A stretch of DNA of 64,000 nt from Squalus acanthias (Eukaryota), in NCBI GenBank assembly GCA_030390025.1, contig CM059432.1, positions 65,040,001 through 65,104,000 on the forward strand. Reading direction: 5' to 3'. The notes under the pieces are model-generated. The model did not search any database, was not told where the DNA came from, and saw nothing but the letters and a program-made list of their open reading frames with translations. Positions 8,892-64,000 of this stretch are shown piece after piece (positions within the stretch are counted from its first letter, which is position 1; each line of letters starts with the position of its first letter). The position numbers were made by a program, and so were the translations under genes.

Positions 8892-11740
8892 GTATTACAA
8901 CTAAAAGTATGTAGGAAATCGTCTGTGTCAGAGCAGTGGGAGGCGTTTAAGGAGGAGATAGTGAGGGTTCAGAGCAAATATGTTCCCACAAAGAAAAAGG
9001 GTGAGACTCCCAAATCTAGAGCCCCCTGGTTGTCAAGGAGCATACAGGGTAGGATAAGGCAAAAAAGGGCAAGCTTATGTCAGATACCGAGAGGTCAATA
9101 CTACCGAAAGTCTATTGAAGTACAGAAAGTGTAGGGTTGAAATTAAAATGGAAATTCGGAAAGCAAAGCGAGGGCATGAAAAAATATTGGCAAGTAAAAT
9201 CAAGGAAAACCCAAAGATGTTTTATAAATACATAAAGAGCAAGAGGATAACTAAGGAAAGAGTAGGGGCTATTAGAGACCAAAAGGTAACCTGTGTGTGG
9301 AGGCGGAAGACGTGGGTATGGTTCTTAATGAATACTTTGTGTCTGTTTTCACAAAAGAGAGGGACGATGCAGACATTGTAGTTAAGGAGGAGAGTGCGAA
9401 ATATTAGATGAGATAAACATAGTGAGAGAGGAAGTATTAAGGGGTTTAGCATCTATGAAAGTAGATAAATGCCAGGCATGGATGAAATGTATCCCAGGCT
9501 GTTAAGAGAAGCAAGAAAAGAAATAGCGGAGGCTCTGACCATCATTTTCCAATCCTCTCTGGCTACAGGCGTGCTGCCAGAGGACTGAAAAAATTGGTAA
9601 CATTGGGGGAAAAATTGGGTTGCTTTGCGCCTCCCGTTAGCACCTCGAGAGGGCACTAACGGGGCGCAAAGCTCCTAGTGCCCGGGCGCGGCGCTGCTAA
9701 TGCCATCCGCGAAATTCAGCGGGAGGTTACCGGCGGCGGTAGCCAGTAGCACCCCGCTGCGCTGCACCTCCGGCAATGATGTCATCGCCCTGCTCGCGCC
9801 CCAGCCGCAAACTTGGCTCGTGCCCCCTGACCTGTCACCGGACGCTATGTCTGACACGGTCAGGGTGGCATTTTTGCAGCCGGGGCGGCATAAATTAAAG
9901 GGCAAGTGCCGGGCGGCCATTTTTTCTGTACTGCCTGCCAGCACCTGCCCCCTTTCGCCTCCTCAGGTGGGGTGCCGGCCGCGATCGGTCAGCCTGGCAC
10001 TCCTCTTGAGTGCCGGGCTCTTTTACCGGCAACCCGCTCCCCGGTGGTCCAGCAGGGTCCCGGTGCGTGCTGCGCTAGGCCCCTCCCCTTTAATTAGGGA
10101 AGGGAGGCCTGCAATACCGCGGCACAATGTGCTGACGTGTGTGGCCCTGATGCACGTAGCACCGCGATATTCAATGGGAGCGCCCCAAGAGGGAGGGGAA
10201 CGCTTCCAGTAGTGCCCCGTCTCCTGCTTGGGGCGCTACCATTCAATTTTGGGCGCGAGGGCGCTAACTTTTTTGGGGCACTAAAAGTAGCACCCCGGCG
10301 AAGTTAGCTCCCCAATTTTACCCCCAATACCTTTGTTTAAAAAGGGAGAAAGGGATAGACCAAGTCATTACAGGCCCATCAGCCTAAATACTGTGGTGGG
10401 CAAATTATTGGAAAAAATTCTGAGAAACAGTATAAATTGTCATTTAGAAAAGCACGGATTAATCAAGGACAGTCAGCATGGATTTGTTAAGGGAAGGTCA
10501 TGTCTGACTAATTTAACTGAATTTTTTGAGGAGGTAATGAGGAGGGTCGATGAGGGTAATGCATTTGATGTAGCCTACATGGACTTTAGCAAGGCTTTTG
10601 TCAAGGTCCCACGTGGCAGGCTGGTCAGAAAAGTAAAAGCCCATGGGATCCAAAGTAAAGTGGCAAGTTGGATCCAAAATTGGCTCAGTGGCAGAAAGCA
10701 AAGGGTAATGGTCAACGGGTGTTTTTGTGACTGGAACACTGTTTCCAGTGGAGTTCTGCAGAGCTGAGTAAGGTCCCTTGCTTTTTGGTGGTACATATAT
10801 CAATGATTTAGACTTCAAAGTAGGGGGCATGATTAAGAAGTTTGAAGATGATACAAAAATTGGCCATGTTGTTGATGAAGAAGAAAGCTGTAGACTGCAA
10901 GAGGATATCAATGGACTGGTCTGGTGGGCAGAAAAGTGGCAAATGAAATTCAATCGGAGAAGTGTAAGGTAATGAAATTGGGAATTGCTAACAAGGCAAG
11001 GGAATACACAATAAACGGTAGGATACCGAGAAGTGTAGAAGAACAGAGGGACTTTGGAGTGCATGTCCACAGATCCCCGAAGGTAGCCAGACAGGTAGAT
11101 AAGGTGGTTAAGAAGGCATACGGGATACTTTCCTTTATTAGCCGAGGCATGGAATATAAGAGCAGGGAGATTATGCTGGAACTGCATAAAACACTAGTTA
11201 GGCCACAGCTAGAATACTGCACACAGTTCTGGTCACCACATTACAGTAAGGATGTGATTACTCTGGAGAGGGTACAGAGGAGATTTATGAGGATGTTGCA
11301 AGGACTGGAGAATTTTAGCTATGAGGAAAGATTGGATAGGCTGAGGTTGTTTTCTTTGGAACAGAGGAGGTTGAGGGGAGATTTAATTGAGGTGTATAAA
11401 ATTATGAGGGGCCTAGATAGAGTGGATAGGAAGGACCTATTTCCCTTAGCAGAGAGGTCAATAACCAGGGGCATAGATTTAAAGTAATTGGTAGAAGGAT
11501 TAGAGGGGAGTTGAGGAGAACTTTTTTCACCCAGAGGGTGGTGGGGGTCTGAAATGCACTGCCTGAAAAAATGGTGGAGGCAGAAAACCTCATCACATTT
11601 AAAAAGTACTTGGATATGCACTTGAAGTGCTGTAACCTGCAAGGCCAAGAACTGAAAAATGGGATTAGGCTGGATAGCTCTTTTTCGGCTGGCACAGACA
11701 CGATGGCCTCCTTCTGTGCCGTAAATTTCGATAATTCTAC
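8892..11740 (+). mobile_element. 5'-truncated, degenerate CR1 LINE ORF2, interrupted by a MITE
   Basis: NPKMFYKYIK, YRPISL, QHGFVKGRSCLTNL and LVRPQLEYC motifs plus a CR1-type 3' UTR; many stops and frameshifts. Confidence 0.92.
9605..10325. mobile_element. GC-rich Harbinger-type MITE nested in CR1
   Basis: TIRs GGGGGAAAAATTGGG / CCCAATTTTACCCCC; the CR1 sequence resumes on both sides. Confidence 0.75.
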
Positions 11741-16063: not shown

Positions 16064-17698
16064 TGTAAGGGGTGACCTGCGGCTCTGTGCTTAGCCTGGG
16101 TGCTAGTGCGGGGTTAGGCCTTGTTGCCTGTTCTGGTCTCCAGCCAGCCTGGTAACACTAGACACCTGTGAGTGGTTCGACCCACTCGCCCTTACGGTTC
16201 TGACACTGGACTTAGGTGCGAGAGCAATAATGCAGAGAAAACTCAGGTAGACCCGGTTGAATAGTGCGAAATGGAAAATCTTTATTGCATATTATTCAAG
16301 ATTACGAGATACATGTCATAAGCACAGATTAATGACAGTACAATCTTACACACAGTTATGAAACTAATTTTAGGGAAACGAGGAGCGCACGACACATCGT
16401 AAAAGGGGACACACATTATAATTATCCTTAAAACTTAAACCCTCCCCTATCAATACCTGTCCTAATCTAGATTTGTAGGATCGAGACTCATGCTCACCAC
16501 TCGTGATAACTCGGAGAATTCCGAAACTCTGCTCGGATGTTTTTACCGCAGCACCTGACTATCCACATGTTGATCAGGGGTCTCTGTACCCCACTTGTTT
16601 ACTCGTTTCTGCTCCGGCTAGCAGGCTGGACCGTCTGCTGTCATGAAGATCTGTGTTGCCCTCGGAGTTCTGATACTACTCAAAAAAGAGTCTTCCTGTG
16701 CCCTACACCGGTTCGATAGAACTCGAAGAAGGGTCTTCCTGGGCCAGTTGTGGAGTAGCCGATAGAATTCAAAGAAGTGTTTATTCGACTTACAGGCGCG
16801 GTCGGGGCTTACTGACCGTGGCGATGCATATTGTCGTCTTCTTCTCTTCTCATCTCATCTCATCTCATCTCATCTCCTCTCGGGCCTTCGGTTCCAACAC
16901 CGTTTACCAACCCCTCGGGATGGTGCGCCCGCTTCCAGGCCTCACAGCCCAGTTCTCCACAGATCTTCGCGGCAAGCCACGAGGTTGATCCTAGCGGATC
17001 AGAGTCCAGAGCCATCAGGCAAGAGAATAAAAGTTCAGCAGTCTTCCAGCGAGTCAAAGCAGCAAGAGAAAGATGGACGGCTGTACTTTACAGTTATAGT
17101 GCTGTAATTCCTCTTTTCCCGCCCAATCTTAATGTCTATCTTTTGTCAGGGTTTTGGCGCTCAAACTTCTTGTATGGGGTGATCTCAGTCTTTAATGGGT
17201 TTCGGTGACACTTGTAACTGTCTGAGTACCCGTTAATATTTCTCCCATTGTGGAACCGGCTAGTAGTCTCCCTGGAGGGGTTTTGGGGCTTCCAAATGCT
17301 TGCTGTGAGTACCCGCAAACGGCTCTCTCATCGTAGAGTCATGGGGATTTTGCATATTAATGTCTTTGGATGGGTCCTTGATCGCTCAGTACAATAGCCC
17401 TTGTTTGCACCTGGGAGACCGATTTCAGTATTCATGTTTAAAGTGTAAACCCATCGCGTTTTGTCATTATCTCATCATGTTGGATCTTTTCGATCTTGCA
17501 CAAATGTTTATTGGAACGCCATCTTGTCTGCCTACTGAAAGTCTAGAACTTTCTGCCACGAGGCGTGGCGGCCATTTTACAGGCTGTTTGTGTCCGTTTT
17601 GAAACCTGACAGCATTCTGCTGAAATAAAGCTGTTTATACGAAACTACATGTCTCCTTCTTATTTTTATAAAATCGCGATAATTTTGCGAATTCTACA
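16064..17698 (-). repeat. 3' LTR (1635 bp)
   Basis: Direct repeat of 27106-28734 with about 13 substitutions and one 6-bp indel by manual comparison. Confidence 0.97.
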
Positions 17699-17710
17699 GT
17701 CCCTCCTGTT
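17699..17710 (-). promoter_or_regulatory. Polypurine tract
   Basis: The minus strand reads AACAGGAGGGAC immediately before the TGTAG that starts the 3' LTR. Confidence 0.75.
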
Positions 17711-18141
17711 GATGCGAATAACTCCGCTTATCGTATCAAAAACATTGTGGTGAGCAATATTATCTCGATTCTCCATATCTAAAATTCCCATAACTTAAAA
17801 CTATCTAGGGTCTCCGTGTTGTCCTTATTTCCCAGGAAAACTACATTCTTATAACACCGTAGGCAGCATTTGCCTTTAACTTACACCGCGTGTATTTCCT
17901 TCCAGGTGTAACCAGGCCGATGCCTCTCGCACCACCTGCATATGCATATTTTTTATTCAAGGAAAAAGAAAACAAAAACAACCAAACAATCATATTCAAC
18001 AACACCAAATCAAAATAATCAAAACCAACTCTTAAATATGTAGAGTTCCAAACTTAATTACAGTTTCTGAGAAAAGTCACGATCGATTACAACAATTCCG
18101 AGGCGCACGTGGAAAAACTGGAGTGACGCCATTTTGTCCGT

Positions 18142-20652
18142 TTACGCGGTGCTTTCATCGTGCACGCGCACGTAACGTTCTCGCCACTCTCCCGTGTTTT
18201 CGTTCTTGGTGAGGCGTTTGCCTCTCTTACAATGCACGACCAATAAGTATATCACAATAAACACTTGGCATACAACTAAAATGTGGGAGGCTATTCTAAT
18301 CCAGGAAGGCACTTCAATATTGGTGAACAGGTCCCACCACGGTGGAATTACGATGTCCAGAATTTCTGTCCCTATCTCGACAGTCTTTTGTTCTAGGGTG
18401 TAAAAATGTTTTTGCGATACCGCGACGGCTTTCAAAAGCTTGGTGAGGTGTTCAGGGAGAGGGGGAATGAGGTATCCGAAATGCGCGACGAATCGCTGCA
18501 AGTCGGTGAAGTTCTCTTTTACTGTAAGATGAACAGTGGATGGTTCAGGGATCAGGACAATTCGCTGTTGTGCCACTTGAACTTCCGCCCTGGGTTTAAA
18601 ACAGAAACTGCTGTCACTCACCGGACACCGGCTACGGTTTCCATGCTGGTAGTGTTGCGCTGCAGTGGTAACACAATATGTTCCACCCCCGATGTATGCT
18701 ACCTGCGGAGGCACATGATCTTGCGCCATTGCCTCCATGGTGCAATTCATGGGCTTGGCGCCAGCCGTTCTGAACCCGCACTGTGGTGTTAAAAAGGCAT
18801 TCAAGTGCTGGGGACACAGTATTATGTGTGCTCCCCGGCCACGACAACCAGAGAGATCTGTACCTGTCATCGTTTGCTCCCAGCGGATGACGTAAAGTGG
18901 AACCGCTGCATAGCGAATGTGGGCTCCCCCCTGAATGACACCAATGTTCTCTACCCGATACACCGGGGCGGGCTTTGCTGTGTCGCCCAAAACCGGCATA
19001 CGTAAAACTACACCCATAATGGTGTGGTTTGATCGTCCGCAGTCCACGGGGACTGGGTATGCTTCTGAAGCTAGCCTGAGCTGGCACGGACTTAATGCGT
19101 TCTGAAAAGGGTGGAGTGCCTGCAGGTGTTTGTTACTTATCCAGGACGGGACCAAACCTTGTTTTAAATCCTCCAAATTACTGCGGCCCTCGCCCAGTAA
19201 CCACGCCCCGTAAAGCACGCATACCTCATTCTGCGCAGTCTGATCGGACGCATTCCGATCTTCCCTAATCAGGGCATTTACCGTACGCGCATGTTTCTCT
19301 AGTTCAGCTATTATTTCTTTTAAATGGAGAGTCATGGCCTGGTCCTCATGTAACCCAGACCCAACCACCTTATTTTCATCTGTGAGAATGTTCTTCAATT
19401 GTGTTTTTAAGCCATTAATCTGGGTCTGCAGCTCCACGCTGTCTAGAGCGTTGACCACAGATGTACCTGTATTGAAAGCAGTGAACATGTCGTTCACCAC
19501 ACCCCTTCTTTGTCTCCCTACCTGACCCAAAACTTCATGTGGTGCGGTGTACAAACTTGTTTTATCAATTTCCGCGAAATCGAACTCATAAAATTGCCTA
19601 AACATCTTGGTCAACAGGACCTGATATAACTGTTCCGTCTCTTTGGGGCACCACTCTGGCAACCGCACCTCGGTGAGGTTTAAAATCACTGAGGCCACCG
19701 CGTAATGTATCCCCTGAAATAGTATCTGGTCTGTAGGGACCAATACCAAACCATTCCCGGGTCCCTTACTGGTTTTTGGGCACCCGTTTTCCTGAGCCAG
19801 AACCACCGGAATCGTGGGCGGGGCCTTGTGTGGGCGCGTAACGAGTTCAGTGGCGTTTACCGGGATCGGAGAGTATGGGGCCCCGCACCCCCTGGTGCTT
19901 ACATCCCACCTCATCCCCTGCCCGTTATCCTGCCACTGATTCACGAAAAATATGGATATGCCTTTGGGGCAAACGTGCTTTGACCCCCACATACATACAT
20001 AAATTCCCTCATCCGGTTCCCACCATTTGTCCCAACAGACTCTCACTTGTCCGTTTGTCCCCGTAATTGTCCGATGGGTGTTATTACCCAGTCGCTCCCA
20101 CTCGACCGAAGAGTTCCTCATGTTTTTGCTCAGCTTTCGCAGCCACCACCATCGGCTCAATGGGACATTCCCATTACAAGTCAAACAAATCCGTTTGCCG
20201 ACGGTGACGCTGACTCTGGGTGCGATGATCCTCACTTTGGGGCACATTAAAGAAGTCTCTTTGTAGGCAAAACCCGATGTACTGGAATACTCAGTGGAAT
20301 TCGTTCCCAGCCATCCTGGCCACCTTCCCTTGTGGAAATAGGTGGCGGTCTCCTCAGCCTCTCGCCTTCCGGTCCCATCCACCGCGATGGGGGCCGTGTC
20401 CCCGGAGCATCCAAATACCACGACATCCTTGGTGCGGCCTCGATAGGCCAGTCCACATCCGATTGCCGCGAGCACTACCAGAATCCGTTCCATCCTTCCT
20501 TGGTTCCTGTGATCAGATAGAATGAGGTAGCCAGCCTCCCAAGAGTCTCTGGCTTTTGTGAAGGGTGAGCGGGTCCCCTGACCTCGCCTCACGTAAGAAG
20601 ACATGTGCGCTGGATAGACTTTAACTATTCCTATCTCTAAAACTCCCATCAT
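18142..20652 (-). CDS. env: Intact envelope glycoprotein: signal peptide, Ig-like domain, F-like class I fusion protein, TM (probable start ATG 20493, 783 aa)
   Basis: Signal-like MERILVVLAAIGCGLA; furin site RQRR at 19515-19504; fusion peptide GVVNDMFTAFNTGTSVV; heptad repeat; Cys-rich block; TM ILVVCQVFIVIYLLVV; short tail with YVRV; several N-glycosylation sequons. Confidence 0.9.
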   Translation of the reverse strand: MMGVLEIGIVKVYPAHMSSYVRRGQGTRSPFTKARDSWEAGYLILSDHRNQGRMERILVVLAAIGCGLAYRGRTKDVVVFGCSGDTAPIAVDGTGRREAEETATYFHKGRWPGWLGTNSTEYSSTSGFAYKETSLMCPKVRIIAPRVSVTVGKRICLTCNGNVPLSRWWWLRKLSKNMRNSSVEWERLGNNTHRTITGTNGQVRVCWDKWWEPDEGIYVCMWGSKHVCPKGISIFFVNQWQDNGQGMRWDVSTRGCGAPYSPIPVNATELVTRPHKAPPTIPVVLAQENGCPKTSKGPGNGLVLVPTDQILFQGIHYAVASVILNLTEVRLPEWCPKETEQLYQVLLTKMFRQFYEFDFAEIDKTSLYTAPHEVLGQVGRQRRGVVNDMFTAFNTGTSVVNALDSVELQTQINGLKTQLKNILTDENKVVGSGLHEDQAMTLHLKEIIAELEKHARTVNALIREDRNASDQTAQNEVCVLYGAWLLGEGRSNLEDLKQGLVPSWISNKHLQALHPFQNALSPCQLRLASEAYPVPVDCGRSNHTIMGVVLRMPVLGDTAKPAPVYRVENIGVIQGGAHIRYAAVPLYVIRWEQTMTGTDLSGCRGRGAHIILCPQHLNAFLTPQCGFRTAGAKPMNCTMEAMAQDHVPPQVAYIGGGTYCVTTAAQHYQHGNRSRCPVSDSSFCFKPRAEVQVAQQRIVLIPEPSTVHLTVKENFTDLQRFVAHFGYLIPPLPEHLTKLLKAVAVSQKHFYTLEQKTVEIGTEILDIVIPPWWDLFTNIEVPSWIRIASHILVVCQVFIVIYLLVVHCKRGKRLTKNENTGEWRERYVRVHDESTA

Positions 20653-20788
20653 TTTACCATTTTCTGTTAAAAACCTTAAACTACAAACTTAACCTGATTT
20701 AAGAAGTATAAACTTGAACTTACAAAACTTATCAACTTATCACTTATCTTATAACTGTACAGTGCCGCCCGTTCCCAGGGTGGCCTAC

Positions 20789-23700
20789 TCAAATTCTGCG
20801 GTTGCTGCCGCAGGCTTCTCCCAACGGTGGGAGGGCATTGACCCCTTCCTTTGATCTGCCGCAGCCTGTTGCTGCTGCGCTGTGACTGGGCTCTCCCTGG
20901 GCTGCCTTAGCCCTGGGCCTACGCTTAGGGACATACGGGGGACTTACCCACATCTTTCTGGGCTGGGGTTTCCGACTTGACCTACGGGGAACTACCGGGG
21001 GCAGGAACTCCAGGACTGACGGACCGGGTTCCGAGACTTCCACCGTGGCGACCTGTGGTCCCACCACAGTCGCTGGCTCCGCCTCCCCTGACTCCGCCTC
21101 CCTGAACTCAGGATCTGCAGCTTGTGGCACCGCCCTACTTGGCCCAGTAGGTGCCCCTTCACTCGCAGTCCCTACCTCCCTCGAGGGCAAGACGTTCAAG
21201 GCAGGCGGCTCGGGCTCTGAGGCTTCCATCGCCACGCCCTGTGGTCCCACCACAGCGGCTGGCTCCGCCTCCCCTAGCTCCGCCCCCCTGCGTTCGGGAC
21301 CTGCAGCTTCGGCCTCCACCCTGTGTGGATCTCTATCTGCAGCCCCTGTCTCCCCATACCTGAATCGGGGGCGACCCTTTCGTCCTCCGATTCCAGCTCC
21401 TCTTCGCTTGTGTCACTATCTTGGTCGAGCTCCTCGAACTCTTCCTCATCTGACTCCCAACCCAAATAAAGGATCCTACATTTTGCTAGGATGTCCTCTC
21501 CCCTGATGCAGGCTGCTTTGCCTGCCTGTGTGACCTGTGGCCCTACCCGGGGCTGCGAGTCCCCACTCGCAGGTTTGGCCCCTGTGGTTGGCCCTTGTGC
21601 ACCCGGCTTATACAGTTTGCACTGATTTACGTGGAACCACTTTGTGCGCCGAGGTACCTTTACGGCGTATACCATGGGACTCACCTTATCTACAATGCTG
21701 TAGGGTCCCATATACAGTGGTACCAGACTTCCTACTCTGGCATAGTTTCTGACCATGACCTGGTCTCCTACTTCCCACTCCCGCTTCTTGCGGGGTTCCA
21801 GCAACAGGAGATTGCCCTGATGCTGCCTTCCCATGTTCCCAGCCGCCTGCTCATAAACCTGCTTCAGGCGCTCCAAGAGGGTCTGGACGAACTTGTCCCT
21901 GCTTACCTCTTGGAGCTGACCCTCAGTGAGCACCGGCGCTAGCACATGGGTGGGGGTTCGCATGATCCTCCCAGTCATCACCTCGTGCGGGGAATACCCC
22001 GTACTTTTCGACTGACTGGCCCGGACCCCCATGAGGACTAAAGGCAGAACCTCCGCCCATTTTTGGGGCGAGTTCATAGTCTCTTTCCTCAATTTCTCCT
22101 TCAGGGTCCGGTTCATGCGTTCAACAATCCCGGATGACTGGGGATTGTGCGCTACGTGCCATTTCCCTTCAATGCCCAAAAGCATGAGGGTGTTCTGCAT
22201 CACCTGGCCGGTGAAATGACTCCCTTGGTCTGACTCCACAAAACGGGGGAGTCCCCACCGCGAGAACACTTCCCGGACCAAGATTTTTGCAGTACCCAGT
22301 GCCGTAGCTGTTCTACAGGGGAAGGCTTCCACCCATTTGGAAACACATCCACCAAGACGAGGCAGTATTTATAGCCTCCCTGGGTGGTGGGCAGGGGCCC
22401 TATATAGTCGATCTGTATCGACTGCCATGGTGCCTCCACCCTCCTGATGTGCCCCATGGACACTTTCCTTTTCTGGGGGTCTGGGTTGTTTGCAGCGCAC
22501 ACGAGACAGCTAGCACAGAACTCGCGGACCTGCTCCCTGAGTCCCGGCCACCATCCCGCCTGCTCTACCCGTTGCCAGGTAACCTCGGGCCCGGGGTGCC
22601 CTGCCCCCGGCCCCTCATGAGCCAACTGGAGGAATTCCCTCCTGTGCTGCTGCGGCACAACCCACTGCTCCTCGCGGAACAGCATGCCTTCCTTAACGGA
22701 GAGGGTGGCCGTACTGTACGGACCCTCTACCTGCTTGCCCTCAGCAATGGTTCTGAGAACTGCCTTTAGGGCGGGATCCTGGTTCTGGATGGTCTTAAGG
22801 TCTAGGGGCAATGCTACCCTGGTGTTCCCGGGATTCCCGTCCCTGCCCTGGATCGCTGCCACGGGTCCGGGCCCATAGGGGTCCCAGAAAATGCCGTTAC
22901 GGGCACCCTCCCTGGCTAGCGCATCCGCCTGCTGGTTGCCCTCCCCACGGGGCTCTGTGGAGGAGTGAGCCTTCACCTTATGGATGAAAATCTCCCCTTC
23001 CTCCCCTACTGCTGCTAGGATCTTTTCCAGCAAGGGCTTCACCGTTAAAGGTTGCCCGTCCGCGGAGGTGTATCCACAGCGGGACCAAATGGCCAGGTAT
23101 TCCGTACACGAATTGCATGTGAACATACTGTCCGAGCAAATCGTGTATGGGGTTGGGAAAGTTTCTGGGTGGGTAACGACGTACACCACCGCAGACAGCT
23201 CAGCCTGCTGCGCGCTCATGGTGCTGGGGAGCTTAATCGCCAGGGCAAGGTTTGCCGCAGGGTCATAAACTCCACACCCTGTGAGTCGTTCGCCAGCAGA
23301 CACTGTGCTGGAACCATCAACTTAAATCTCGCGACCTGTGGGATGTATCCCGGCCCGCAAACCTATGTTGACTTCCCACACCCCTTCCACCGAACACTGG
23401 TGGGCTGTACCGGGGTATACCAAATTGGCCACAAGCCTGGGCTCGCAAAGACATTTAATTCTAAGATCCATCTGGGAAAGGAGAAGGGTCCAGCGCGCAA
23501 TTCGAGCGCTGCTTACGGTCCCATCCTTAATCCTCCCATCTAGAAGCATCTTAGTTGGTGTGTGATGGGTGAGGAGAGTGATGGGAGAGAGCCCTGTGAA
23601 GATCGCTGATCTTTTCACAGCCCAATGTGTGGCTAAAAGATGCCTTTCGCAATTGGAGAAACTCCTCTCCACATCCGTTAACACTCTGGACGAATAGACA

Positions 23701-25277
23701 ACCGGCCTCAGCTTGCCGTGACGCTCTTGGAGCAGCACAGCGCCCAAGCTGTCTCCGCTGGCAGCTACCTCCAGGAAAAACTCCTACCCCCCATCTATGG
23801 CCCCTAAAGCTGGCGCGGTCTGCAAATCCCTTTTTAACTTCTCGAAGGCTGCCTGGCAGCCCTCGTCCCAAGACCACTCCACTCCCTTATGGAGGAGTCG
23901 GAGCAGCGGTGCCGCTGTGGCCGCATAGTCTTCAATAAAATCCCTGCAGTAACCGGTCAGTCCCAAAAAGGACCTCACACCCCTTATGGTGTTGGGAATC
24001 GGTAACTCTTGCACCGACTCCCTCCTAGCCTTATCTATGGCTCTTTCCCCAGCGCGAATGGTCAGCCCCAGGAATTTTACTTCCTGCTGACCGATACGTG
24101 CTTTCTTAGGGTTCACTTTAAAACCCTTTCTCGCTAGCAGCTCCAATAACTCGGCCACCAGTGGTCCATGCTCCTCCCTTGAGTCCGTAAATAGGAGCAA
24201 ATCATCCACGTACTGCACTATCTGATTGGGCTGACTAAACTCCTTTAAACTTCCTGTCATACACTGATGGAAAATACTGGGGATGTTGTGGAAACTCTGT
24301 GGCAAACAGTTCCATGTGTACTGTTGTCCTTTGAAAGTAAAGGCAAACTTGTACTGGTCCTCTCGCCGCAGCGGGATGGACCAAAAACCGTTCGAGATAT
24401 CCAGCACCGTGAACGTGGTCGCGGACGCTGGGATACTCCCTATTAGGTCAGCAACTGCTGCTACCGTGGGCGCGCAGGCGGGAATGTTACTGTTAAGGAC
24501 TCTGTAGTCCACCGTGGCCCTCCACGAATTATCCAGCTTCCTAACCGGCCATAATGGGGAGTTCACGTGTGTGGCTATCGGCCTCAACACGCCCTGCTGC
24601 ACCAAGGAGGACATTGCTGTCTCCATATCGGGTTCTGCTTCTTTGGGGAAGTTATACTGCTTTTGGGGCCGGGTCATGGGGTCCCCATCTACGCTGACCT
24701 CAAACCCGGTAACCCTCCCACAATCGTGCTTGTGGGTTGCAAACGCGTGCATATTATCTGACACGTACGTCTGCATGTCCGTTGGGACATCCGCAACCAT
24801 AAGCCCGAGGTCGTAGCCTTCGGATGGCTTCATGGTACACAGGGCCCCTTTACCTTCCTCCCCCGGGATTACCACTACCTTGCCTTTTCCACCCTTAGCT
24901 CCCCAGAGACAGTGATTCCTGAGGTCCACGAGGATCCCGTGCCCCGATAGGAGATCTGATCCGAGGATGCCTCTCCCACCCCCCTCTTGCCATTTCATCA
25001 GTATGCACTTCCACGTGGTGTGGAGTGCTCCTAAATGAATGGATAGCGGAATGGAGAACGCGCCAGCCTGCTCTTTTCCCGTAAACCCCGCTAATGTGTA
25101 TGGGACCTTGGTAGATAGCGGTGAGTCAAAGGGGCTATCCGTATGAATCACGGTGCATGAAGCTCCCGTGTCCAACAAATAACTACCCTTCTGCTTCTCT
25201 ACCTCCATCTCCACCAGGGGTCGCTTCCACGCATCATAGCTGAGCGGACACAGGTAGACGGGCTGTGCGGGCTCTAG
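20789..25277 (-). pseudogene. pol: pol: protease, RT, tether, RNase H, integrase and a low-complexity tail; 2 in-frame stops (23784, 23322) and frameshifts near 22342 and probably 21370
   Basis: LLDTGAS; NSPLWPVRK, DYRVLN, LDISNGF, LPQSF, YVDD; tether GAVLLQ...RIARW; RNase H DGS / SAQQAEL / SDS / KVKAH / GNQQADALA; integrase HHCC, QIDYIG, SDQGSHF, VERMNRTLK, GPY. Confidence 0.95.
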
Positions 25278-27101
25278 TCATTGGGTACTGTTGGACGGGG
25301 CTGCGGCATCTGCGGGGCCGGTAGCGACTGCCACCCTTCCCTGCGAAATCATGAGGGTGCGCATGGCTCCCAACATCGATTCGATCGCATCGGGATGGAT
25401 AGGCACACCAGCTCCCCTATCAGAGACAGGCACCTGGGCTCGGACTGCGGGATTTTTATCCCTGGACTCCTTCCAAGGGTTCCTGCAGTTCTTGCGCCAG
25501 TGCCCTGTCTTTCCGCATCCGAAACAAGCATTACTGGCCTGTGGGACGCGATTTCCCTCCTGATGCCACTCCTTTTGAGCCGGGGCTGTGGGCCGCGCCT
25601 CATGCACCTTTCCCTTAAGGGGACGTGCTGCCGTACTCCTGGTATTACGGTACCCTACCGTGAGTCGATTTAGGACCGACTCCTCTGTTGTGGCGGGGTT
25701 AGTGGGATCAAACCACGCTTTGGCCTGCTCCCTGACGGCTGGCAAACTGTTGGCAACTAAACACCTGAGCCAATGAGTTAAACCGACACCGTTCAAATAG
25801 GTGCGCTCTGGTGCACCTGGGCAGCTACGTTGATATACTGGCCACAGCCTGTCGGCGAAAACCTTCGGGGGTTCTCCCTCCATCTGCACTGTTTGTCCCA
25901 ATCTAACGAACGGACCTTCATCATCCGCTCCCAACACTTCCAGGACCTCATCTCTTAACTCCTCATAGGTATTATTTCCCCTCTTGCTCTCATCTGAGAG
26001 ACACTGAAGGATCGAGCTGTCTAATGAGAACAGCAGCATTTTTGCTTTTTCCCCATCGTCGCAGCCGTTAATGGCTGCGGTCTGCTCTACCTCCCTGAAA
26101 TGTACGGAAGGGTCATCTGACTCGGACAGCTTCCGTACGTGACTGATCATGGCCCTCAGCTGGTGTGCATTGTGCGGCAACACAAGCTGGCTGAGGAGAT
26201 CCTCCTCTGCCCCACCGTCTCTGTTCGGGCCCCTTTTGATACCCGTGACCGGACACAACGGTCCCGGCTTCACTTCTACCTCAGGGGGCTGTACTACCTC
26301 GGGGACCTCTTCCTCTACTTCTACCACTTCCTTCCTCACCCAGGTTGCCGAATAGCTGGGTGGCGCGGAGGGCACAGTGGCAAATATCTCCTCTGCCTTG
26401 TTCGGTGGGGATTTCTGAAATTCCCCACCCACCAGCGGCTGGTGTGCTGACGGGCTGATAAGGCACACCATGCCGTGTGCTTTATTCAGGGCCTCTTTAA
26501 GGTTCCCTATCTCTCTTTGGCAGACGCTGTGATCGGCCCCCTCATGTTTATCCTCGAGGGCCATCTTATATGCCGCCCTAACCCCCGTTAAGCTCTCTTC
26601 CTGGGCTTTTATTTGGGCAGCTAGGCGGGCACATCGTTCCCTTATTCTGCCCTCATTTAACTTTGCCTCAGTGACCTGGCACTCGAGGTAATCTATTTTC
26701 GCCTCATGCTGGTTGGCGACTCACTGGCGTTCTTGATGCAACGCATTTAAAGACGCGATGAGCTGCTGCCCCCCCGCGACCTTCTCGTCCATTTCCACCT
26801 CTAAACCCTTGATCTGAGCTGCCTGCGCTATGATGACCTGGTCCGAAAGCTGGACTTGTCTTTTATAGCACATCAGCCAGACCGCTTTCTCTACAGTTTT
26901 TTTATGTTCCTTGCTACCTGTCCACCACACGGCTGCCTCTAGTGGACGCTTATCCACCAGCAGGTCACTTATCCATCTCTTAGTCAAATTCACTTTTCCA
27001 AAAACATAATCAGCTATTCTCTCTTCCATAACATTTCGCCCATTCATACCAGGGTCTAACACATTATTTTCTCGCTGCCAGTGTCCCTTCGTGGTCGCCA
27101 T
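25278..27101 (-). pseudogene. gag: gag with one in-frame TGA at 26721-26723
   Basis: ORFs 26721-27101 and 25278-26564 are in the same frame. They encode a coiled-coil-like N-terminal half, a capsid-like region with MHR-like QMEGEPPKVFADRL, and the zinc knuckle CFGCGKTGHWRKNC. The start codon is uncertain. Confidence 0.88.
27083..27100 (-). promoter_or_regulatory. Primer binding site, tRNA-Arg
   Basis: TGGCGACCACGAAGGGAC lies 5 nt after the 5' LTR and is complementary to the 3' 18 nt of vertebrate tRNA-Arg(TCG) as I recall that sequence. Confidence 0.85.
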
Positions 27102-27105
27102 TATC

Positions 27106-28734
27106 TGTAAGGGGTGACCTGCGGCTCTGTGCTTAGCCTGGGTTCTAGTGCGGGGTTAGGCCTTGTTGCCTGTTCTGGTCTCCAGCCAGCCTGGTAACAG
27201 TAGACACCTGTGAGTGGTTCGACCCACTCGCCCTTACGGTTCTGACACTGGACTTAGGTGCGAGAGCAATAATGCAGAGAAAACTCAGGTAGACCCGGTT
27301 GAATAGTGCGAAATGGAAAATCTTTATTGCATATTATTCAAGATTACGAGATACATGTCATAAGCACAGATTAATGACAGTACAATCTTACTCACAGTTA
27401 TGAAACTAATTTTAGGGAAACGAGGAGCGCACGACACATCGTAAAAGGGGACACACATTATAATTATCCTTAAAACTTAAACCCTCCCCTATCAATACCA
27501 GTCCTAATCTAGATTTGTAGGATCGAGACTCATGCTCACCACTCGTGATAACTCGGAGAATTCCGAAACTCTGCTCGGATGTTTTTACCGCAGCACCTGA
27601 CTATCCACGTGTTGATCAGGGGTCTCTGTACCCCACTTGTTTACTCGTTTCTGCTCCGGCTAGCAGGCTGGACCGTCTGCTGTCATGAAGATCTGTGTTG
27701 CCCTCGGAGTTCTGATACTACTCAAAAAAGAGTCTTCCTGTGCCCTACACCGGTTCGATAGAACTCGAAGAAGGGTCTTCCTGGGCCAGTTGTGGAGTAG
27801 CCGATAGAATTCAAAGAAGTGTTTATTCGACTTACAGGCGCGGTCGGGGCTTACTGACCGTGGCGATGCGTATTGTCGTCTTCTTCTCTTCTCATCTCAT
27901 CTCATCTCATCTCATCTCCTCTCGGGCCTTCGGTTCCAACACCGTTTACCGACCCCTCGGGATGGTGCGCCCGCTTCCAGGCCTCACAGCCCAGTTCTCC
28001 ACAGATCTTCGCGGCAAGCCACGAGGTTGATCCTAGCGGATCAGAGTCCAGAGCCATCAGGCAAGAGAATAAAAGTTCAGCAGTCTTCCAGCGAGTCAAA
28101 GCAGCAAGAGAAAGATGGACGGCTGTACTTTACAGTTATAGTGCTGTAATTCCTCTTTTCCCGCCCAATCTTAATGTCTATCTTTTGTCAGGGTTTTGGC
28201 GCTCAAACTTCTTGTATGGGGTGATCTCAGTCTTTAATGGGTTTCGGTGACACTTGTAACTGTCTGAGTACCCGTTAATATTTCTCCCATTGTGGAACCG
28301 GCTAGTAGTCTCCCTGGAGGGGTTTTGGGGCTTCCAAATGCTTGCTGTGAGTACCCGCAAACGGCTCTCTCATTGTAGAGTCGTGGGGATTTTGCATATT
28401 AATGTCTTTGGATGGGTCCTTGATCGCTCAGTACAATAACCCTTGTTTGCACCTGGGAGACCGATTTCAGTATTCATGTTTAAAGTGTAAACCCATCGCG
28501 TTTTGTCATTATCACATCATGTTGGATCTTTTCGATCTTGCACAAATGTTTATTGGAACGCCATCTTGTCTGCCTACTGAAAGTCTAGAACTTTCTGCCA
28601 CAAGGCGTGGTGGCCATTTTACAGGCTGTTTGTGTCCGTTTTGAAACCTGACAGCATTCTGCTGAAATAAAGCTGTTTATACGAAACTATCCTTCTTATT
28701 TTTATAAAATCGCGATAATTTTGCGAATTCTACA
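27106..28734 (-). repeat. 5' LTR (1629 bp)
   Basis: Direct repeat of 16064-17698, adjacent to the PBS; contains a (TCTCA)n run. Confidence 0.97.
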
Positions 28735-39514: not shown

Positions 39515-42500
39515 TTAGCAGGCAGGAGACTGGAAGGAGTGGACCTGGAGGGAGCACAAAGAGAGCTGAGCAGTTAAAAGGAGCAGTCCCAAGCAGCAGG
39601 AGCCATGAGACTGGAAGGAGTGCACCTGGAGGGAGCTCAGCGAGTGCAGAGCAGTTAAAAGGAGCGGCAGCAACTCAACAGAGGCAGTTTTTGAAAAAGT
39701 GACGCCAGAGTAAAAACAGTGACATCGGCACATGTGAAGGAACTGATTGGTGAGTAGCTGGTGAGTGTATTTTTTTTTAAGTTTATTTTTGCTGGATTAG
39801 TTCTTAGTCTATTAAATAGAGGCATGGCAGGGCAGCTCAGTCCCGTGGAGTGCACATCCTGTGTCATGTGGGAAGTCCTGGATGCTTCGCGTAGCCTGGA
39901 CGACCACATGTGCGGGAAGTGTCGCCAGCTACAGCAACTCGAGTTCCGGGTTTCGGAGCTTGAGCGGCGGCTGGAGTCACTGCAGTGCATCCGCGAGACT
40001 GAAAGTTATGTGGATAGCACGTTTCTAGAGATGGTCACCCTGAAGCTTAAGAGTATGCAGGCAGAAACGGAATGGGTGACCGCCAGACAGAAGAGGAGGA
40101 CCAGGCAGGTAGTGCAGGAGTCCCCGGAGTGCATCGCGCTCTCCAACCAGTATTCCGTTCTGAGTACTGGTGAGGGCGATGGTTCCTCTGGGGAGTGCAG
40201 CCAAAGTCAAGTCCACGGCACCACGGATGGCTCAGCTGCACAGGGGAGGAGGAAAATGAGTGGAAAGCAATAGTGGTAGGGGATTCGATAGTTAGGGGGG
40301 CAGGTAGGCATTTCTGCAGCTGTAGACGTGACACCAAGCCTCCCTGGTGCCAGGGTCAAGGATGTCACTGAGCGGCTGCAGGACACTCTGAGGGGGAGGG
40401 TGAACAGCCAGAGGTCATTGTCCATATCTGTACCAATGACATAGGCAGAAAGAGAGATGAGGTCCTGAAGGCAGAGTTTAGGGAGCTAGGAGAGAGATTA
40501 AAAAGCAGGTCCTCAAAGGTAGTAATCTCCGGAATACTCCCAGTGCCACGTGCTAGTGAGTACAGGAATAGGAGGATAGAACAGATGAATGCATGGCTGG
40601 AGAGATGGTGCAGGCAGGAGGGATTTAGATTCCTGAGGCATTGGGACCATTTCTGGGGAAGGTGGGACCTGTACAAGCCGGACAGGTTACACCTCAACGG
40701 AGCTGGGACCAATATTCTCACGGGGAGGTTTGTTAGTGCTGTTGGGGAGGGTTTAAACTAGCTTGGCAGGGGGATGGGCACCAGCATATAGGAGTAGAAA
40801 AGAGGAATAAGGTGCATAAAAGAGTGAGTGTGTTGGATAGTACTAGAGAAGGTAGTACTAGAGGCGGAAGTAATAACATATTAGATAGGAGCAGACTAAG
40901 AAAGACTCCGAAAAATTCAAAAATGTGTTTAAAATGCATGTACGTAAACGCACAAAGTGTGGTGACTAAGGTTGGTGAGCTACAAGCACAATTAGCTGTG
41001 TGGCAATATGATGTTGTGGCAATAATGGAAACGTAGCTTAAAAACGGTGAGGACTGGGCACTTAATATTCAAGAGTACAAGGTGTTCAGAAAAGATAGGG
41101 AAGGAAAAAAGGGAGGTGGGGTGGCAGTGCTGATTAAGGAAGACATTGTAGTGTTAGAAAGGGAGGATGTTCTTGAGGGGACAAGGACAGAATCCATTTG
41201 GTTAGAGTTGTGGAGCAAAAAGGGTATGATCACTCTATTGGGGGTATTCTATAGGCCTCCAAATAGTGAGAGGGAGGTACAGGAGCAAATATGCAGGGAA
41301 GTCTCAGAGATATGCAAGAGCTATAGAGCGGTGATATTGGGGGACTTTAATAACCCAAATATTGATTGGGATAATGCTAGGGTAAAGGGAAAGGAGGGGG
41401 AGGAATTTCTGAAATGTGTTCAGGAGAATTTCCTTGACCAATATGTTCTTGGCCCAACTAGGAAGGAGGCATTGCTGGATCTGGTGCTGGGGAATGAGGT
41501 GGGCCAGGTCGCCCAAGTGTCTGTGGGAGAACACTTGGGTACGAGTGATCATCGTATCATAAGATTTAGATTAGCAATGGAGAGGAGCAAGGAACAATCT
41601 AGAGTGGAGCTTCTAAACTGGACTAGGGCTAACTTCAATGGGATGCGAAAGGCTCTAACCAGGGTAAAATGGAACCAAAGACTGACAGGAAAAACTGTAA
41701 TGGAACAATGGGTGATCTTTAAGGAGGAGATGTTCCAAGTACAGGCTAGGTACATTCCAACAAAGGGGAAGGGTAAGGGAACCAATGCAAGGGCTCCTTG
41801 GATGACGAGGGAGATAGAGACGATGATGAAACAAAAAGAGGGTGTATGATGCATGTCAGGTGAATTCTTCAAGGGAGAACCAGACCAAATACAATCAGTT
41901 GAGAGGAGATGTGAAGATGAAAGTAAGATTGGCAAAGAGAGTATATCAGAGTAGAATGGCGGTTAACATAAAAGGGAACCCAAAAATCTTCTACCAGCAT
42001 GTAAACAGTAAGCGGGTAGTAAGAGACAGGGTGGGACCTATAAGAGACAAAGAAGGTGATATATGCTTAGAGGCACAGGGCAAGGCTAGAATACTCAATG
42101 AGTACTTTGCATCGGTGTTTACCAAGGAGGTGGATGCTGACAAAATATCGGTAGAAGTGGAAAAGGTAGAAGCAATGGAAGGGGCGAAAATTGATAGAGA
42201 GGATGTACTAGAAAGGCTGGGTATGCTCAGAGTGGACAAGTCGCCTGGTCGAGATGGCTTGCATCCCAGATTGCTAAGGGAATTGGGGGAGGAGTAGCGG
42301 AAGGGCTTGCCATAATTTGCCAATCTTCCCTAGATGCGGGGGAGGTGCCTGAGGATTGGAAAGTGGCAAATGTGACACCATTGTTCAAGAACGGGTGTAA
42401 GGACAATCCTAGTAACTACAGGCTGGTCAGTTTAACATCAGTGGTGGGTAAAGTTTATGAAACAATAATGAAGGAAAAATTAACGGGCACTTGGAGAGGT

Positions 42501-43805
42501 TTAAGCTAATTAAGCAGAGCCAACACGGATTTGTAAAAGGCAAATCATGTTTGACTAATCTAATTGAATTTTTTGATGAAGTAGCAGAGAGGTTTGATGA
42601 AGGGAATGCAATGGATGTTGTCTACATGGATTTTTGGAAGGCGTTTGACAAAGTACCACATAGAAGGCTGGTTAACAAAATTGAGGCTCATGGAATAGGT
42701 GGGTCAGTGGCAGCTTGGATAAGGAATTGGCTTAAGGACAGAAAACAGTGAGTTGTGGTAAATGGCTGTTTTTCAGACTGGAGGATGGTAGACAGTGGTG
42801 TTCCCCAAGGGTCAGTGCTGGGGCCACTGCTTTTTTTGATATATATAAATGACCTGGATATTGGAATACAGAGTAGAATTTCTAAATTTGCCGATGACAC
42901 CAATCTTGGGAGTGCAGCAACAGTGATGATGATACCAATCGACTGCAACAGGACATAGAAAGGCTAGCAGAATGGGCAGACAAGTGGCAGGTGGAATTTA
43001 ATAGAGAAGTGTGAGGTGATGCATTTTGGCAGAAGGAACAGGGAGAGGCAATATACACTTAATGGCACAGCATTAAAGAGTGTGCAGGGACAGAGGGACC
43101 TGGGAGTTAATGTGCATAGGTCCCTGAAGGTGGCAGGAAATATTGAGAGAGTGGTTAACAAAGCATATGGGATCTTGGGCTTCATAAGTAGAGGTATTGA
43201 GTACAAAAGTAGAGAAGTTTTGCTGAACCTTTATAAAGCGCTGGTTAGGCCACAACTGGAGTATTGCATCCAGTTCTGGTCACCACACTTTAGGAAGGAT
43301 GTGAAGGCCCTTGAGAGGGTGCAGAGGAGATTTACCAGAATAGTTCCAGGGATGGGGAATCTTAGTTACTAGGACAGGTTGGAGAAGCTGGATTTGTTTT
43401 CATTAGAGCAAAGGAGGTTGAGGAGTGATTTGATAGAGGTGTACAAGATTATGATGGGTTTGGATAGGCTAGACGGGGAAAGGCTGTTCCCACTAGTTGA
43501 TGGTACAAGGACTAGGGGACACAGATTTAAGGTTTTGGGCAAAAGATACAGGGGGGATGTGAGGAAAAACTTTTTTATGCAGCTAGTGGTGATGACCTGG
43601 AACTCGCTGCCGACAGAAGTGGTGGAGGCGGAGACTCTCAATGTTTTCAAGGGGAGACTGGATAGGCACTTGAGGGAAATAAACTTGCAGAGCTACGGGG
43701 ATACAGCGGGGGAATGGGACTGACTGGATTGCTCTACAGAGAGCCGGCACGGACTCGATGGGCCGAATGGCCTCCTTCTGTGCTGTTATGACTCTCTGAC
43801 TCTAT
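39515..43805 (+). mobile_element. Full-length CR1 LINE (ORF1 zinc finger, coiled coil and SGNH esterase from ATG 39824; ORF2 APE endonuclease + RT), disrupted
   Basis: CTSC/CGKC, VGDS and DRLHLN in ORF1; GGGVAVLI, YRPP, GDFN, SDH and FADD in ORF2; tandem 5' UTR repeats; several stops. Confidence 0.95.
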
Positions 43806-49484: not shown

Positions 49485-49964
49485 CTGGAAAAAAGAATCA
49501 GCAGAATAAGCATTAAGGGTTTCCTACAGTTGTATTGATTGTCAACACGTATTGCACATTCCTGTGGGAAAACTGCATTTCACTCAAACATCTTAGTCGT
49601 AGATTCTCATTCTTCAAAAAGGTTCACAGTGGGAATTTATTCATGGTTATTTTTCACCTTATATCTACCTCAAGTGTATATTGAACCTGAATTATTAATT
49701 AGCCAGATTAATTCTTCATTGACTTATTTTAAAGGGAATATGTTCCCCTGTCTCTGGAGATTATATGAATGTACTAGCTGTCTAGAACAAACTATATTGT
49801 TAACCATAATGAGAGCATAGGGAGGGGGGGGGGGGGAACGAGGGGGGGGGGGGGATTTTTAATTGCTGGCTGCCCGTTTCTTAACTGAAAAATTGGCAGC
49901 CAGCTGTTGAAAATTAGGGGTGGGGGAATGCAGTTCAGCTTGCCAGCCCCTTGCAGGCCCAAGG

Positions 49965-51270
49965 CACGGATTGGTCAGGGACAGTCAGCATGGATTTGTT
50001 GGGGGAAGGTCATGTCTGACTAACGAGATTGAATTTTTTGAGGAGGTAACAAGGAGGGTCGATGAGGGTAGTGCGGCTGATGTAGTCTATATGGATTTTA
50101 GCAAGGCTTTTGATAAGGTCACGCATAGCAGACTGGTCACGAAAGTAAAAGCCCATGGGATCCAAGGCAAAGTGGCAAGTTGGATCCAAAATTGGCTCAG
50201 AGGCAGGAAACAAAGGGTAATGGTCGAAGGGTGTTTTTGTGACTGGAAGGCTGTTTCCAGTGGGGTTCCGCAGAGCTCAGTACTGGGTCCTTTGCTTTTT
50301 GTGGTATATATCAATGATTTGGACTTGGATGTAGGAAGTATGATTATGAAGTTTGCAGATGATACAAAAATTGGCCGTGTGGTGTAATGAAGAATAAAGC
50401 TGCAGACTGCAGGAAGATATCAATGGACTGGTCAGGTGGGCAGAACAGTGGCAAATGGAATTCAATCTGGAAAACTGTGAGGTAATGCATTTGGGGAGGG
50501 TTAGCAAGGCATGGGAATACACTATAAATGGTAGGACACTAAGAAGTGTAGAAGATCAGAGGGACCTTGGAGTGCAAGTCCACAGATCCCTGACGGTAGC
50601 AGAACCGATAGATAAGGTGGTTAAGAAGGCATACGGGATACTTATCTTTATTAGCCGAGGCATAGAATATAAGAGCAGGGAGGTTATGTTTGAACTGTAT
50701 AAAACACTAGTGAGGACGCAGCAAGAATACTGCGTGCAGTTCTGGTCACCACATTACAGGAAGGATGTGATTGCACTAGAGAGGGTGCAGAGGAGATTTA
50801 CGAGGATGTTGCCTGGGCTGGGTAATTTTAGCTATGAGGAAAGATTGGATAGGCTGGGGTTGTTTTCTTTGGAACAGAGGAGGTTGAGGGGAGACCTAAT
50901 TGAGGTGTATAAAATTATGAGGGGCCTAGATAGAGTGGATAGGAAGGACCTATTTCCCTTAGCAGAAGGGTCACTAACCAGAGGGCATAGATTTAAAGTA
51001 ATTGGTCGGAGGTTTAGAGGGGATTTGAGGATAATCTTTTTCACCCAGAGGGTGGTGGGGGTCTGGAACTCACTGCCTGAAAGGGTGGTAGAGGCAGAGA
51101 CCCTCATCACTTTTAAAAAGTACTTGGATATGCACTTGAAGTGCCGTAACCTACAAGGGTATGGACCAAGAGCTGGAAAGTGGGATTAAGGTGGATAGCT
51201 CTTTGTCGGCCGGCACGGACAAGATGGGCCAAATAGCCCCCTTCTGTGCTGTATATTTCTACGATTCTAT
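49965..51270 (+). mobile_element. 5'-truncated CR1 (same family as 10326-11740), intronic
   Basis: QHGF, DFSKAFDKV, GVPQ and FADD motifs plus a 3' UTR. Confidence 0.93.
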
Positions 51271-59250: not shown

Positions 59251-59337
59251 ATAAGTTTGCTGAAAATAGCTCTGCGTCATTTCATATTTAATTAAATAAA
59301 TAAACATTGGGAGGGAATATTAAAAAAATGAACCAGT

Positions 59338-62300: not shown

Positions 62301-63300
62301 GCCATATTAGTTTAAATCCTCCCGAACTGCCTTAGCAAATATTACCCCGAGGACATCGGTTCCAGTCCTGCCCAAGTGCAGACCGTCCCTTTTGTACAGG
62401 TCCCACTTCCCCCAGAACTGGTTCCAATGCCTCAGGTATTTGAATCCCTCCCTCCTGCACCACTGCTCAAGCCACGTATTTAATCTCGCTATCCTGTTCA
62501 TGCTACTCTGATTAGCACGTGGCACTGGTAGCAACCCAGAGATTACTACCTTTGAGGTCCTACTTTTCAATTTAGCTCCTAGCTCCCTAAATTCTGCTTG
62601 TAGGACCTCTTCCCGCTTTTTACCTATATCGTTGGTACCAACATGCACCACGACAGCTGGCTCTTCACCCTCCCTTTCCAGAATGTTCTGCAGCCGCTCC
62701 GAGACATCCTTGACCCTTGCACCAGGGAGGCAACATACCATCCTGGAATCTCGGTTGCGGCCACAGAAACTCCTGTCTATTCCCCTTACAATTGAGTCCC
62801 CTATCACTATAGCTCTACCACTCTTTTTCCCGCCCTGCTGTGCAGCAGAGCCAGCCATGGTGCCATGAACCTGGCTGCTGGTGCCTTCCCCTGGTAGGTC
62901 ATTTCCCCCAACAGTATCCAAAACGGTATATCTGTTTTGGAGGGAGATGACCGCAGGGGACTCCTGCACTACCTTCCTGATATTGCCCTGCCTCTTGGTC
63001 ACCCATTTACTGTCTGACCTAGCCTTTACCCGCGGTGTGTTCAACTCACTAAATGAGTAATCCACAAAGTTCTCGGCATCGTGGATGCTCCAGAGTGCCG
63101 CCATGCGGTCCGTCAGGAGCTGCAGCTGGATGCACTTCCTGCACACATAGTTGTCAGGGACACTGGAAGTCCCTGATTTCCCACATAGCACAGGAGGAGC
63201 ACGACACGGTTCCGAGATTTCCTGCCATGACTTAACCCTTATATTACTTTATTAAGTTAAGTCCCTGAAAACAAAATATAAATCGAACCTACCTTTTAAA
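59338..63300 (-). mobile_element. Near full-length young CR1 LINE (ORF1 esterase about 63228-62307; ORF2 62259-59340 with a single frameshift near 60993), 3' UTR missing
   Basis: VIGDSIVRG and DGLHL in ORF1; LNARS, ITETWL, GDFN, SDH and FADD in ORF2. Confidence 0.95.
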
Positions 63301-63351
63301 TTCCCTCTACCCCTAAAGGTTAGAGGAGGTGGGAGACACTACTAGTGTTTG

Positions 63352-64000
63352 TTATGGGATTGGGGGTAAGGTACTGACTTGGATAGAAAACTGGTTGGCA
63401 GACAGGAAGCAAAGAGTTGGAATAAACGGGTCTTTTTCCGACTGGCAGGCAGTGACTAGTGGGGTACCGCAGGGATCGGTGCTAGGACCCCAGTTATTCA
63501 CAATATATATTAATGATCTAGACGAGGGAACTAGATGTAATATCTCCAAGTTTGCAGACGACACAAAGCTGGGTGGGTGTGTGTGCTGTGAGGAGGATGC
63601 AGAGAAACTCCAGTATGATTTGGACAGGTTGGGTGATTGGGCAGATGCATGGCAGATGCAGTATAATGTGGATAAATGCGAGGTTATCCACTTTGGTGGC
63701 AAAAGCAAGAAGGCAGATTATTATCTGAACGGCAATAGATTGGGAAAAGGGGAAGTGCAACGAGACCTGGGTGTCCTTGTGCACCAGTTGCTGAAGGTAA
63801 GCATGCAGGTGCAGCAGGCGGTTAAGAAGGCAAATGGTATGTTGGCCTTCATAGCGAGAGGATTCGAGTACAGGAGCAAGGATGTCTTGCTGCAGTTGTA
63901 CAGGGCCTTAGTGAGACCACACCTTGAGTATTGTGTGCAGTTTTGGTCGCCTTATCTGAGGAAGGATGTTCTTGCCATGGAGGGAGTGCAGCGAAGATTC
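63352..64000 (+). mobile_element. CR1 RT fragment running off the window edge
   Basis: [24 protein letters not shown] and FADD in the + frame. Confidence 0.9.

Follow-up and report, generated by a model that had tools for sequence, protein, structure and literature searches.

Readthrough signals and retroviral gag-pol junctions

Readthrough of the stop codon between gag and pol is textbook retrovirology, and the mode of Pol expression serves as a trait in retroviral classification. In gamma- and epsilonretroviruses (MoMLV, WDSV), an in-frame stop lies between the zinc knuckle and the D-T-G motif of the protease, as in the endogenous retrovirus described here, and for the same inferred purpose. 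That stop is UAG in both genera and in SnRV, according to the available sections of a review (PMC13517186); the junctions of the two genera read UAG-G, with a pseudoknot in gammaretroviruses, whereas ours reads TGA-C. No pseudoknot was found for SnRV or WDSV (PMC3835772, available text). According to the same review, readthrough in epsilonretroviruses lacks experimental verification, and what is said of Pol expression in fish retroviruses rests on assumption, not on measurement (PMC13517186, section 4.1.2). UGA junctions are also on record, namely, UGAAGA in SSSV, UGACGA in ZFERV, and UGAAGU in RMEV (PMC13517186) and a TGA in XtERV-S (PMC8278194). All four viruses place UGA between in-frame gag and pol, as in our element; unlike ours, none of the SSSV, ZFERV, and RMEV contexts is UGA-CUA. 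A preliminary description of the locus had contrasted its UGA with the UAG of gamma- and epsilonretroviruses. Since UGA was already known at gag-pol junctions, the new part is the CUA(G) context only, which was seen in two retroviral lineages, this one and the lokiretroviruses.

UGA followed by CUAG is an experimentally established, strong readthrough context (PMC5868278, PMC13517186), as the preliminary description had stated. Readthrough of UGA_CUAG ranged from 1.3 to 6.7% in 17 human contexts and from 6 to 17% in OPRL1, OPRK1, AQP4, and MAPK10, and the signal is used by several alphaviruses (PMC5868278, available text). The type II signals (UGA-CUA/CGG) of alphaviruses, coltiviruses, and triatoviruses and of OPRL1, OPRK1, AQP4, MAPK10, and VDR share their heptamer with our junction; the only animal-virus users of type II named in the available part of the review are Alphavirus, Coltivirus, and Triatovirus (PMC13517186). 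In alphaviruses the stop rations the downstream polymerase, and CGA sense variants exist (PMC13517186); the same role is proposed for the stop studied here. The type II 3' stem-loop is needed with UGA-CGG and conditional with UGA-CUA. Our site differs from the type II viruses in being a retroviral gag-pol site at which no conserved extended stem-loop was found. Judged by title and the start of the abstract, none of the literature matches listed described a UGA-CUA context in a retrovirus, the search covering sources other than subscription papers and Repbase. The available text of PMC9040795, PMC10435555, PMC3835772, and bioRxiv 10.1101/2023.10.26.564294 holds nothing on a TGA-CTAG junction.

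Organization and placement of the element

The sequence analyzed was a 64,000-nt stretch of Squalus acanthias DNA (the window). It contains a 12.7-kb endogenous retrovirus on the minus strand (16064-28734), with TG...CA LTR ends and a 4-bp target duplication flanking it on both sides (Table 1). The two LTRs differ by 0.8% (13 substitutions in 1,629 aligned bases, plus one 6-nt indel). In pro-pol, two stops interrupt the reading frame, at 23786-23784 and 23324-23322, and a frameshift lies in the integrase near 22345. The copy is thus young yet broken, and owing to these breaks and that in gag it can no longer make full-length Gag or Pol. Four coding breaks beside LTRs only 0.8% apart are somewhat above the neutral-decay expectation; defects that predate insertion, LTR conversion, or an assembly error are possible sources of the surplus.

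Table 1. Features of the endogenous retrovirus (window coordinates)
Feature	Position	Strand	Basis
5' LTR, 1629 bp, TG...CA	27106..28734	-	aligned to 3' LTR
Primer-binding site, 5 nt inside of the LTR	27083..27100	-	
gag, ~607 codons from first ATG, one CCHC knuckle, internal stop 26723-26721	25278..27101	-	
gag-pol junction CAA-TGA-CTAG, likely readthrough signal	25274..25283	-	sequence
Short hairpin, +7 to +39, weak candidate	25242..25274	-	folding z and contigs
pro-pol: protease, RT, tether RNase H, RNase H, integrase	21274..25277	-	Pfam/frames
env-like frame, open for 848 aa between stops, with a basic cleavage-like site	18142..20688	-	
3' LTR, 1635 bp, preceded by purine-rich tract	16064..17698	-	

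The primer-binding site may resemble the 3' end of a tRNA-Arg, and it overlaps with the ATG that comes first in the gag frame (27083-27101, minus strand). A skate gene model, P0121, begins with the same residues as this gag frame, and another relative, P0122, does not. The N-terminal part of gag appeared coiled-coil-like by eye, and its frame matched no Pfam family.

In a tree of 39 RT sequences, which held only sequences with an unbroken RT core and no lokiretrovirus, foamy virus, or ERV-L, the RT of the element fell outside the 21-member gamma/epsilon clade (support, 100/100) and into an unresolved fork with L001 and amphibian and coelacanth Pols. L001, a 10,688-nt record which we take to be SnRV from its UAGGGC junction and its length, was also the best of four reference genomes when compared with the protease-RT region (34.6% identity over 488 aa). 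In L001, too, a single CCHC knuckle precedes the stop by 68 aa, but its junction is TAG-GGC against our TGA-CTAG. Gag of the element matched SnRV Gag at the knuckle only (E value of 0.007); P0122 Gag additionally matched it in the N-terminal part (E value of 1.7e-5, pairwise). On these comparisons, the retrovirus may be called SnRV-like, with no claim of membership.

Among gamma-type loci, TAG-G was in frame at eight of those compared, the comparison being confined to loci with a visible in-frame knuckle-stop-protease junction and so leaving out L008 and L014-L022. L012 has a TGA-AGA junction and lies in the epsilon-like clade, away from our RT. The element thus lacks two features of the type III signals of gamma- and epsilonretroviruses, a UAG-G junction and an RT within their clade; a third feature of these signals is an H-type pseudoknot after an 8-nt spacer.

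The gag-pol junction

On the minus strand the junction reads ...CCC-CAA-TGA-CTA-GAG-CCC, with TGA at 25280-25278 and CTAG at 25277-25274. The upstream frame (25278..26720, 480 aa stop to stop) carries the CCHC zinc knuckle, and the downstream frame (23784..25277, 497 aa stop to stop) carries RVP and RVT_1 (Pfam); the two adjoin at the TGA in the same phase. This confirms the preliminary description, in which gag ended in CAA TGA CTA GAG with the frame open into the protease, and the peptide quoted there was exact. The junction therefore has two features of type II signals: a UGA followed in frame by an essential ORF and CUA(G) at positions +4 to +7. From the codon usage of the element, CTA and then G after a given stop is expected with a frequency of about 0.0085 x 0.35 = 0.003, although the true odds are less extreme, since several other known motifs would have been equally eye-catching. 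The heptamer TGACTAG occurs once on the sense strand of the element and twice in the 64-kb window when both strands are counted.

Since UGA_CUAG is an established signal, we consider programmed readthrough of this conserved, in-frame UGA-CUAG the probable route to Gag-Pol, with a probability of about 0.8. The programmed opal suppression put forward in the preliminary description is in this sense upheld as likely, on the grounds of frame, motif, and conservation. One competing reading is decay: CpG deamination, for instance, could have created the TGA in a family with a single open gag-pol frame. With three further in-frame stops and the integrase frameshift in this copy, which the preliminary description had not mentioned and which decay would predict, the claim that the TGA is no lesion needed evidence from outside the window, and relatives were therefore compared.

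Position of the stop in relatives

The named best matches of Gag and Env were skate and sawshark gene models, which points to a cartilaginous fish as the probable host. When aligned, P0121 (60% identity) and P0122 (47%) terminate at the very column where Gag of the window does, and both are open across its internal gag stop. All three full-length Gag relatives terminate at the junction site. The knuckle-to-stop distance is 68 aa in the window, 64 aa in P0127, and 58 and 68 aa in the other two relatives. None of the 18 Gag matches inspected (P0121, P0122, and 16 of 129) continues into a protease motif. On the other side of the junction, the Pol relative P0001 (83%) is a single open frame of 1,145 aa that runs across the pol breaks of the window.

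More distant relatives were also compared. Scaffold 2 of the elephant-shark CmiERV (lineage I; clade Huo in PMC6001957), which its author grouped with snakehead retrovirus (PMC4422223), was read by eye and showed an in-frame CAA-TGA-CATG after the knuckle and ahead of the protease motif. It therefore shares CAA-TGA-C with the window, a further point against decay, and differs in continuing TGA-CATG and in having an envelope that is of gamma type by eye. The main text of the CmiERV paper contains none of the terms "stop," "readthrough," and "gag" (PMC4422223). In the coelacanth model P0005 (43%), a Gln stands in the register of our stop, a sense codon of the kind that decay would call for. In the SnRV-like group as a whole, CUAG is not maintained (CmiERV, L001, P0005).

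DNA contigs over the junction

Contigs were compared over 25050-25500 in 4 of the 20 runs listed, from four studies and organisms A, B, C, and F. Letters private to the window show up as differences in nearly 100% of the material (e.g., at 25083 and 25377). A private stop would accordingly be the top difference, and none such was among those listed, so that the junction TGA is not private to the window. Positions 25267-25292 were free of differences among the 40 listed of 104 (four runs), a gap of 26 nt which, with 40 differences spread over 451 nt, carries no significance by itself (about 2.3 differences expected). Minority copies with another codon at the junction may exist, being compatible with these 40 of 104 differences. 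The heptamer was covered by 12 of the 32 contig pieces listed (736 in total), with 4 to 25 other letters each; none of these 32 extended 31 letters beyond it in both directions.

Loose ends of contigs were informative as well. Of the 23 loose ends listed (51 in total), five, from 8 contigs and all four runs, start directly past 25280, 25281, or 25285, so that on the gag side the likeness of divergent relatives breaks off at the stop. Three more among those listed start before 25246 (three runs). What divergent relatives have in common would thus be an island made up of the stop and some 35 nt more, both ends of which were seen, maybe in different contigs. Depth peaked in the bin 25242-25257 in each of the four runs and was lower over the protease active site, although contig depth is not to be equated with copy number. 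Two contig joints with skips of 341 and 81 nt were considered as splicing and rejected; coming from a DNA run, they were taken as deletions.

Judged by relatives and contigs together, the junction TGA is the true Gag terminator of the family and not a lesion of this copy, in line with the preliminary description, and the decay reading is largely refuted. The stop and its context are conserved among relatives, for the heptamer in the sense of the contig differences listed. The expectation that TGACTAG would be found across family copies and related elements was borne out in part, as no change was listed in the contigs of four organisms, whereas CmiERV and L001 lack CUAG.

Protease start and downstream RNA structure

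Residues 16-23 past the stop align with residues 5-12 of HIV-1 protease, and the Pfam RVP match begins at residue 17. The first Met past the stop is residue 24, inside the protease fold. This bears on the possibility that the TGA is a plain stop and Pol is made apart from Gag, as in foamy viruses, either from a spliced mRNA with CTAG as acceptor or by reinitiation. CTAG does end in YAG, and the 1.6-kb LTRs are, as we assume, foamy-like in length. However, since the protease begins before the first Met, reinitiation would cut off its start; the 30 nt before the AG of CTAG are C/A-rich and hold no U-rich pyrimidine tract; and separate translation would have no need of the gag/pol frame shared in both the window and CmiERV. 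Separate expression of Pol is therefore considered improbable.

Under programmed readthrough, translation would for the most part end with the release of Gag 68 residues past the zinc knuckle, and a few percent of ribosomes, helped by CUAG, would read through the TGA with an amino acid inserted by a near-cognate tRNA. The usual residues at UGA are Trp, Arg, or Cys. Ribosomes that read through would go on to make protease, RT, RNase H, and integrase, and the frequency of the event would set the Gag:Gag-Pol ratio, like UAG readthrough in gammaretroviruses. We infer readthrough and its level from the observed frame, motif, conserved stop position, and protease start.

The folding of the 150 nt downstream, suggested in the preliminary description and carried out with ViennaRNA, whose predictions leave out pseudoknots, yielded no conserved long stem. 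A long stem was predicted at +23..+83 (z = -1.82 for 156 nt), but over six window lengths z ranged from -2.5 to +1.15, and 4 of 19 control windows in pol fell below -2.5. As a conserved element the stem was rejected: in a divergent contig (X18 record 10), compared by hand with 18 of its 25 differences listed, six of the eight pairs touched were broken and none of the listed differences was two-sided. A short hairpin at +7 to +39 gave a z of -2.5 for a 40-nt window, one of six windows tried, and the deepest contig bin (25242-25257) falls within it. The two listed changes within it break no pair (one makes a G-U wobble and one lies in the loop), and the listed contig differences show no covariation. 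The hairpin might help readthrough and is regarded as a weak candidate for such an aid.

No Rfam family was found at E values up to 5 within 24900-25500. This speaks to selenocysteine as well, though the scan lay outside the 3' region where a SECIS would be located. Beyond a UGA codon in an open frame, nothing suggests decoding as selenocysteine; the site lies in a linker of the polyprotein, at which Cys was seen in none of the relatives, so that we give this reading almost no weight.

Comparison with lokiretroviruses

In the published lokiretrovirus sequences (PMC7947760), as far as their junctions could be read by eye, gag ends in an in-frame TGA-CTAG in Loki-Ofa, -Cne, -Pyo, and -Sau (Data set S1) and in an in-frame TGA-CTAA in Loki-Dcl and -Lro (supplement), making TGA-CTA-G/A at the end of gag a feature shared by the window and 6 of the 24 sequences. 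Loki-Bsp gag also ends in TGA (PMC7947760 supplement). The junction was seen in all but 7 of the 24, where line breaks can hide matches. The authors start pol at a downstream CTG, TTG, or ATG, with the in-frame TGA-CTA lying upstream (PMC7947760); the main text of that paper contains none of the terms "readthrough," "stop codon," and "suppression," and the review does not contain the term "lokiretrovirus" (PMC13517186). Ten of the 24 sequences are annotated as fused gag-pol, and one of these (probably Loki-Pfl, judging by file order) reads CGA-CTAA where the others stop. Both observations would suit a decayed stop, although the sequences are the authors' consensus and the fused ones may reflect reconstruction.

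In other respects, loki protease starts, compared by eye, look unlike ours, and their stop-to-protease-motif spacer is longer, with about 65-70 or more codons compared with 36 in the window. As a group, the lokiretroviruses are characterized by an RT that is sister to that of all other retroviruses, and some members carry an smc-like gene. A tether and a second RNase H occur in both, but these are common to all retroviruses and not diagnostic. Loki Env is similar to PF00523 fusion glycoprotein, and Env of the window is, as a lead, F-like by language-model features.

These junctions help to weigh the alternative that readthrough does take place but depends on UGA-C only, or on an RNA element downstream, CTA-G being kept since Leu and the next residue serve a Gag-protease cleavage site. 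CmiERV keeps only TGA-C, conservation extends about 35 nt past the stop (the loose ends at 25246 in three runs), and other retroviruses use UGA in other contexts. Against this, CTA makes up only 23 of the 240 Leu codons of the element and yet no third-base change was among the 40 listed of 104 contig differences, and the unrelated loki junctions have the same TGA-CTA with different residues following. This alternative is held to be unlikely, and readthrough helped by CUAG is preferred.

A broader reading can be offered only tentatively. Context-driven readthrough at UGA-CUA(G), linked until now to alphaviruses and a few vertebrate genes, might be the standard route to Pol in two distant aquatic lineages, many lokiretroviruses and the cartilaginous-fish family described here. 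It would involve a UGA/CGA switch like that of alphaviruses and no need of a pseudoknot, and it would then have arisen twice or be an old solution that predates UAG plus pseudoknot. The junction also offers a small, testable case of whether sequence context alone can set the Gag:Gag-Pol ratio in retroviruses. For annotation, the loki pol starts set downstream of an in-frame TGA-CTA are instructive, and screens for endogenous retroviruses could mistake such stops for decay.

The env-like frame and other features of the window

The env-like frame has remained open over 848 codons, whereas gag and pol together carry four breaks. It had no Pfam match at an E value of 0.1 and no PDB match. Its language-model neighbors were Gypsy, Baculo_F, and Fusion_gly (0.93-0.96), a recognition below the threshold of the tool, and its only homologs were three skate or sawshark gene models. 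An F-like Env combined with an SnRV-like Pol is therefore a possible arrangement and is offered as a lead only.

Between integrase and env lies a Pro/Glu/Ala-rich open frame (20789-21412, minus strand) that matched no Pfam family. It includes a direct duplication of 141 nt, at 20996-21136 and 21182-21322, the two copies being 76% identical. Elsewhere in the window, copies of interspersed repeats with long frames, presumably LINE-like, were found at 10449-11644, 42496-43692, 49961-51158, and 59288-64000 (families D1, D2, D4, and D5).
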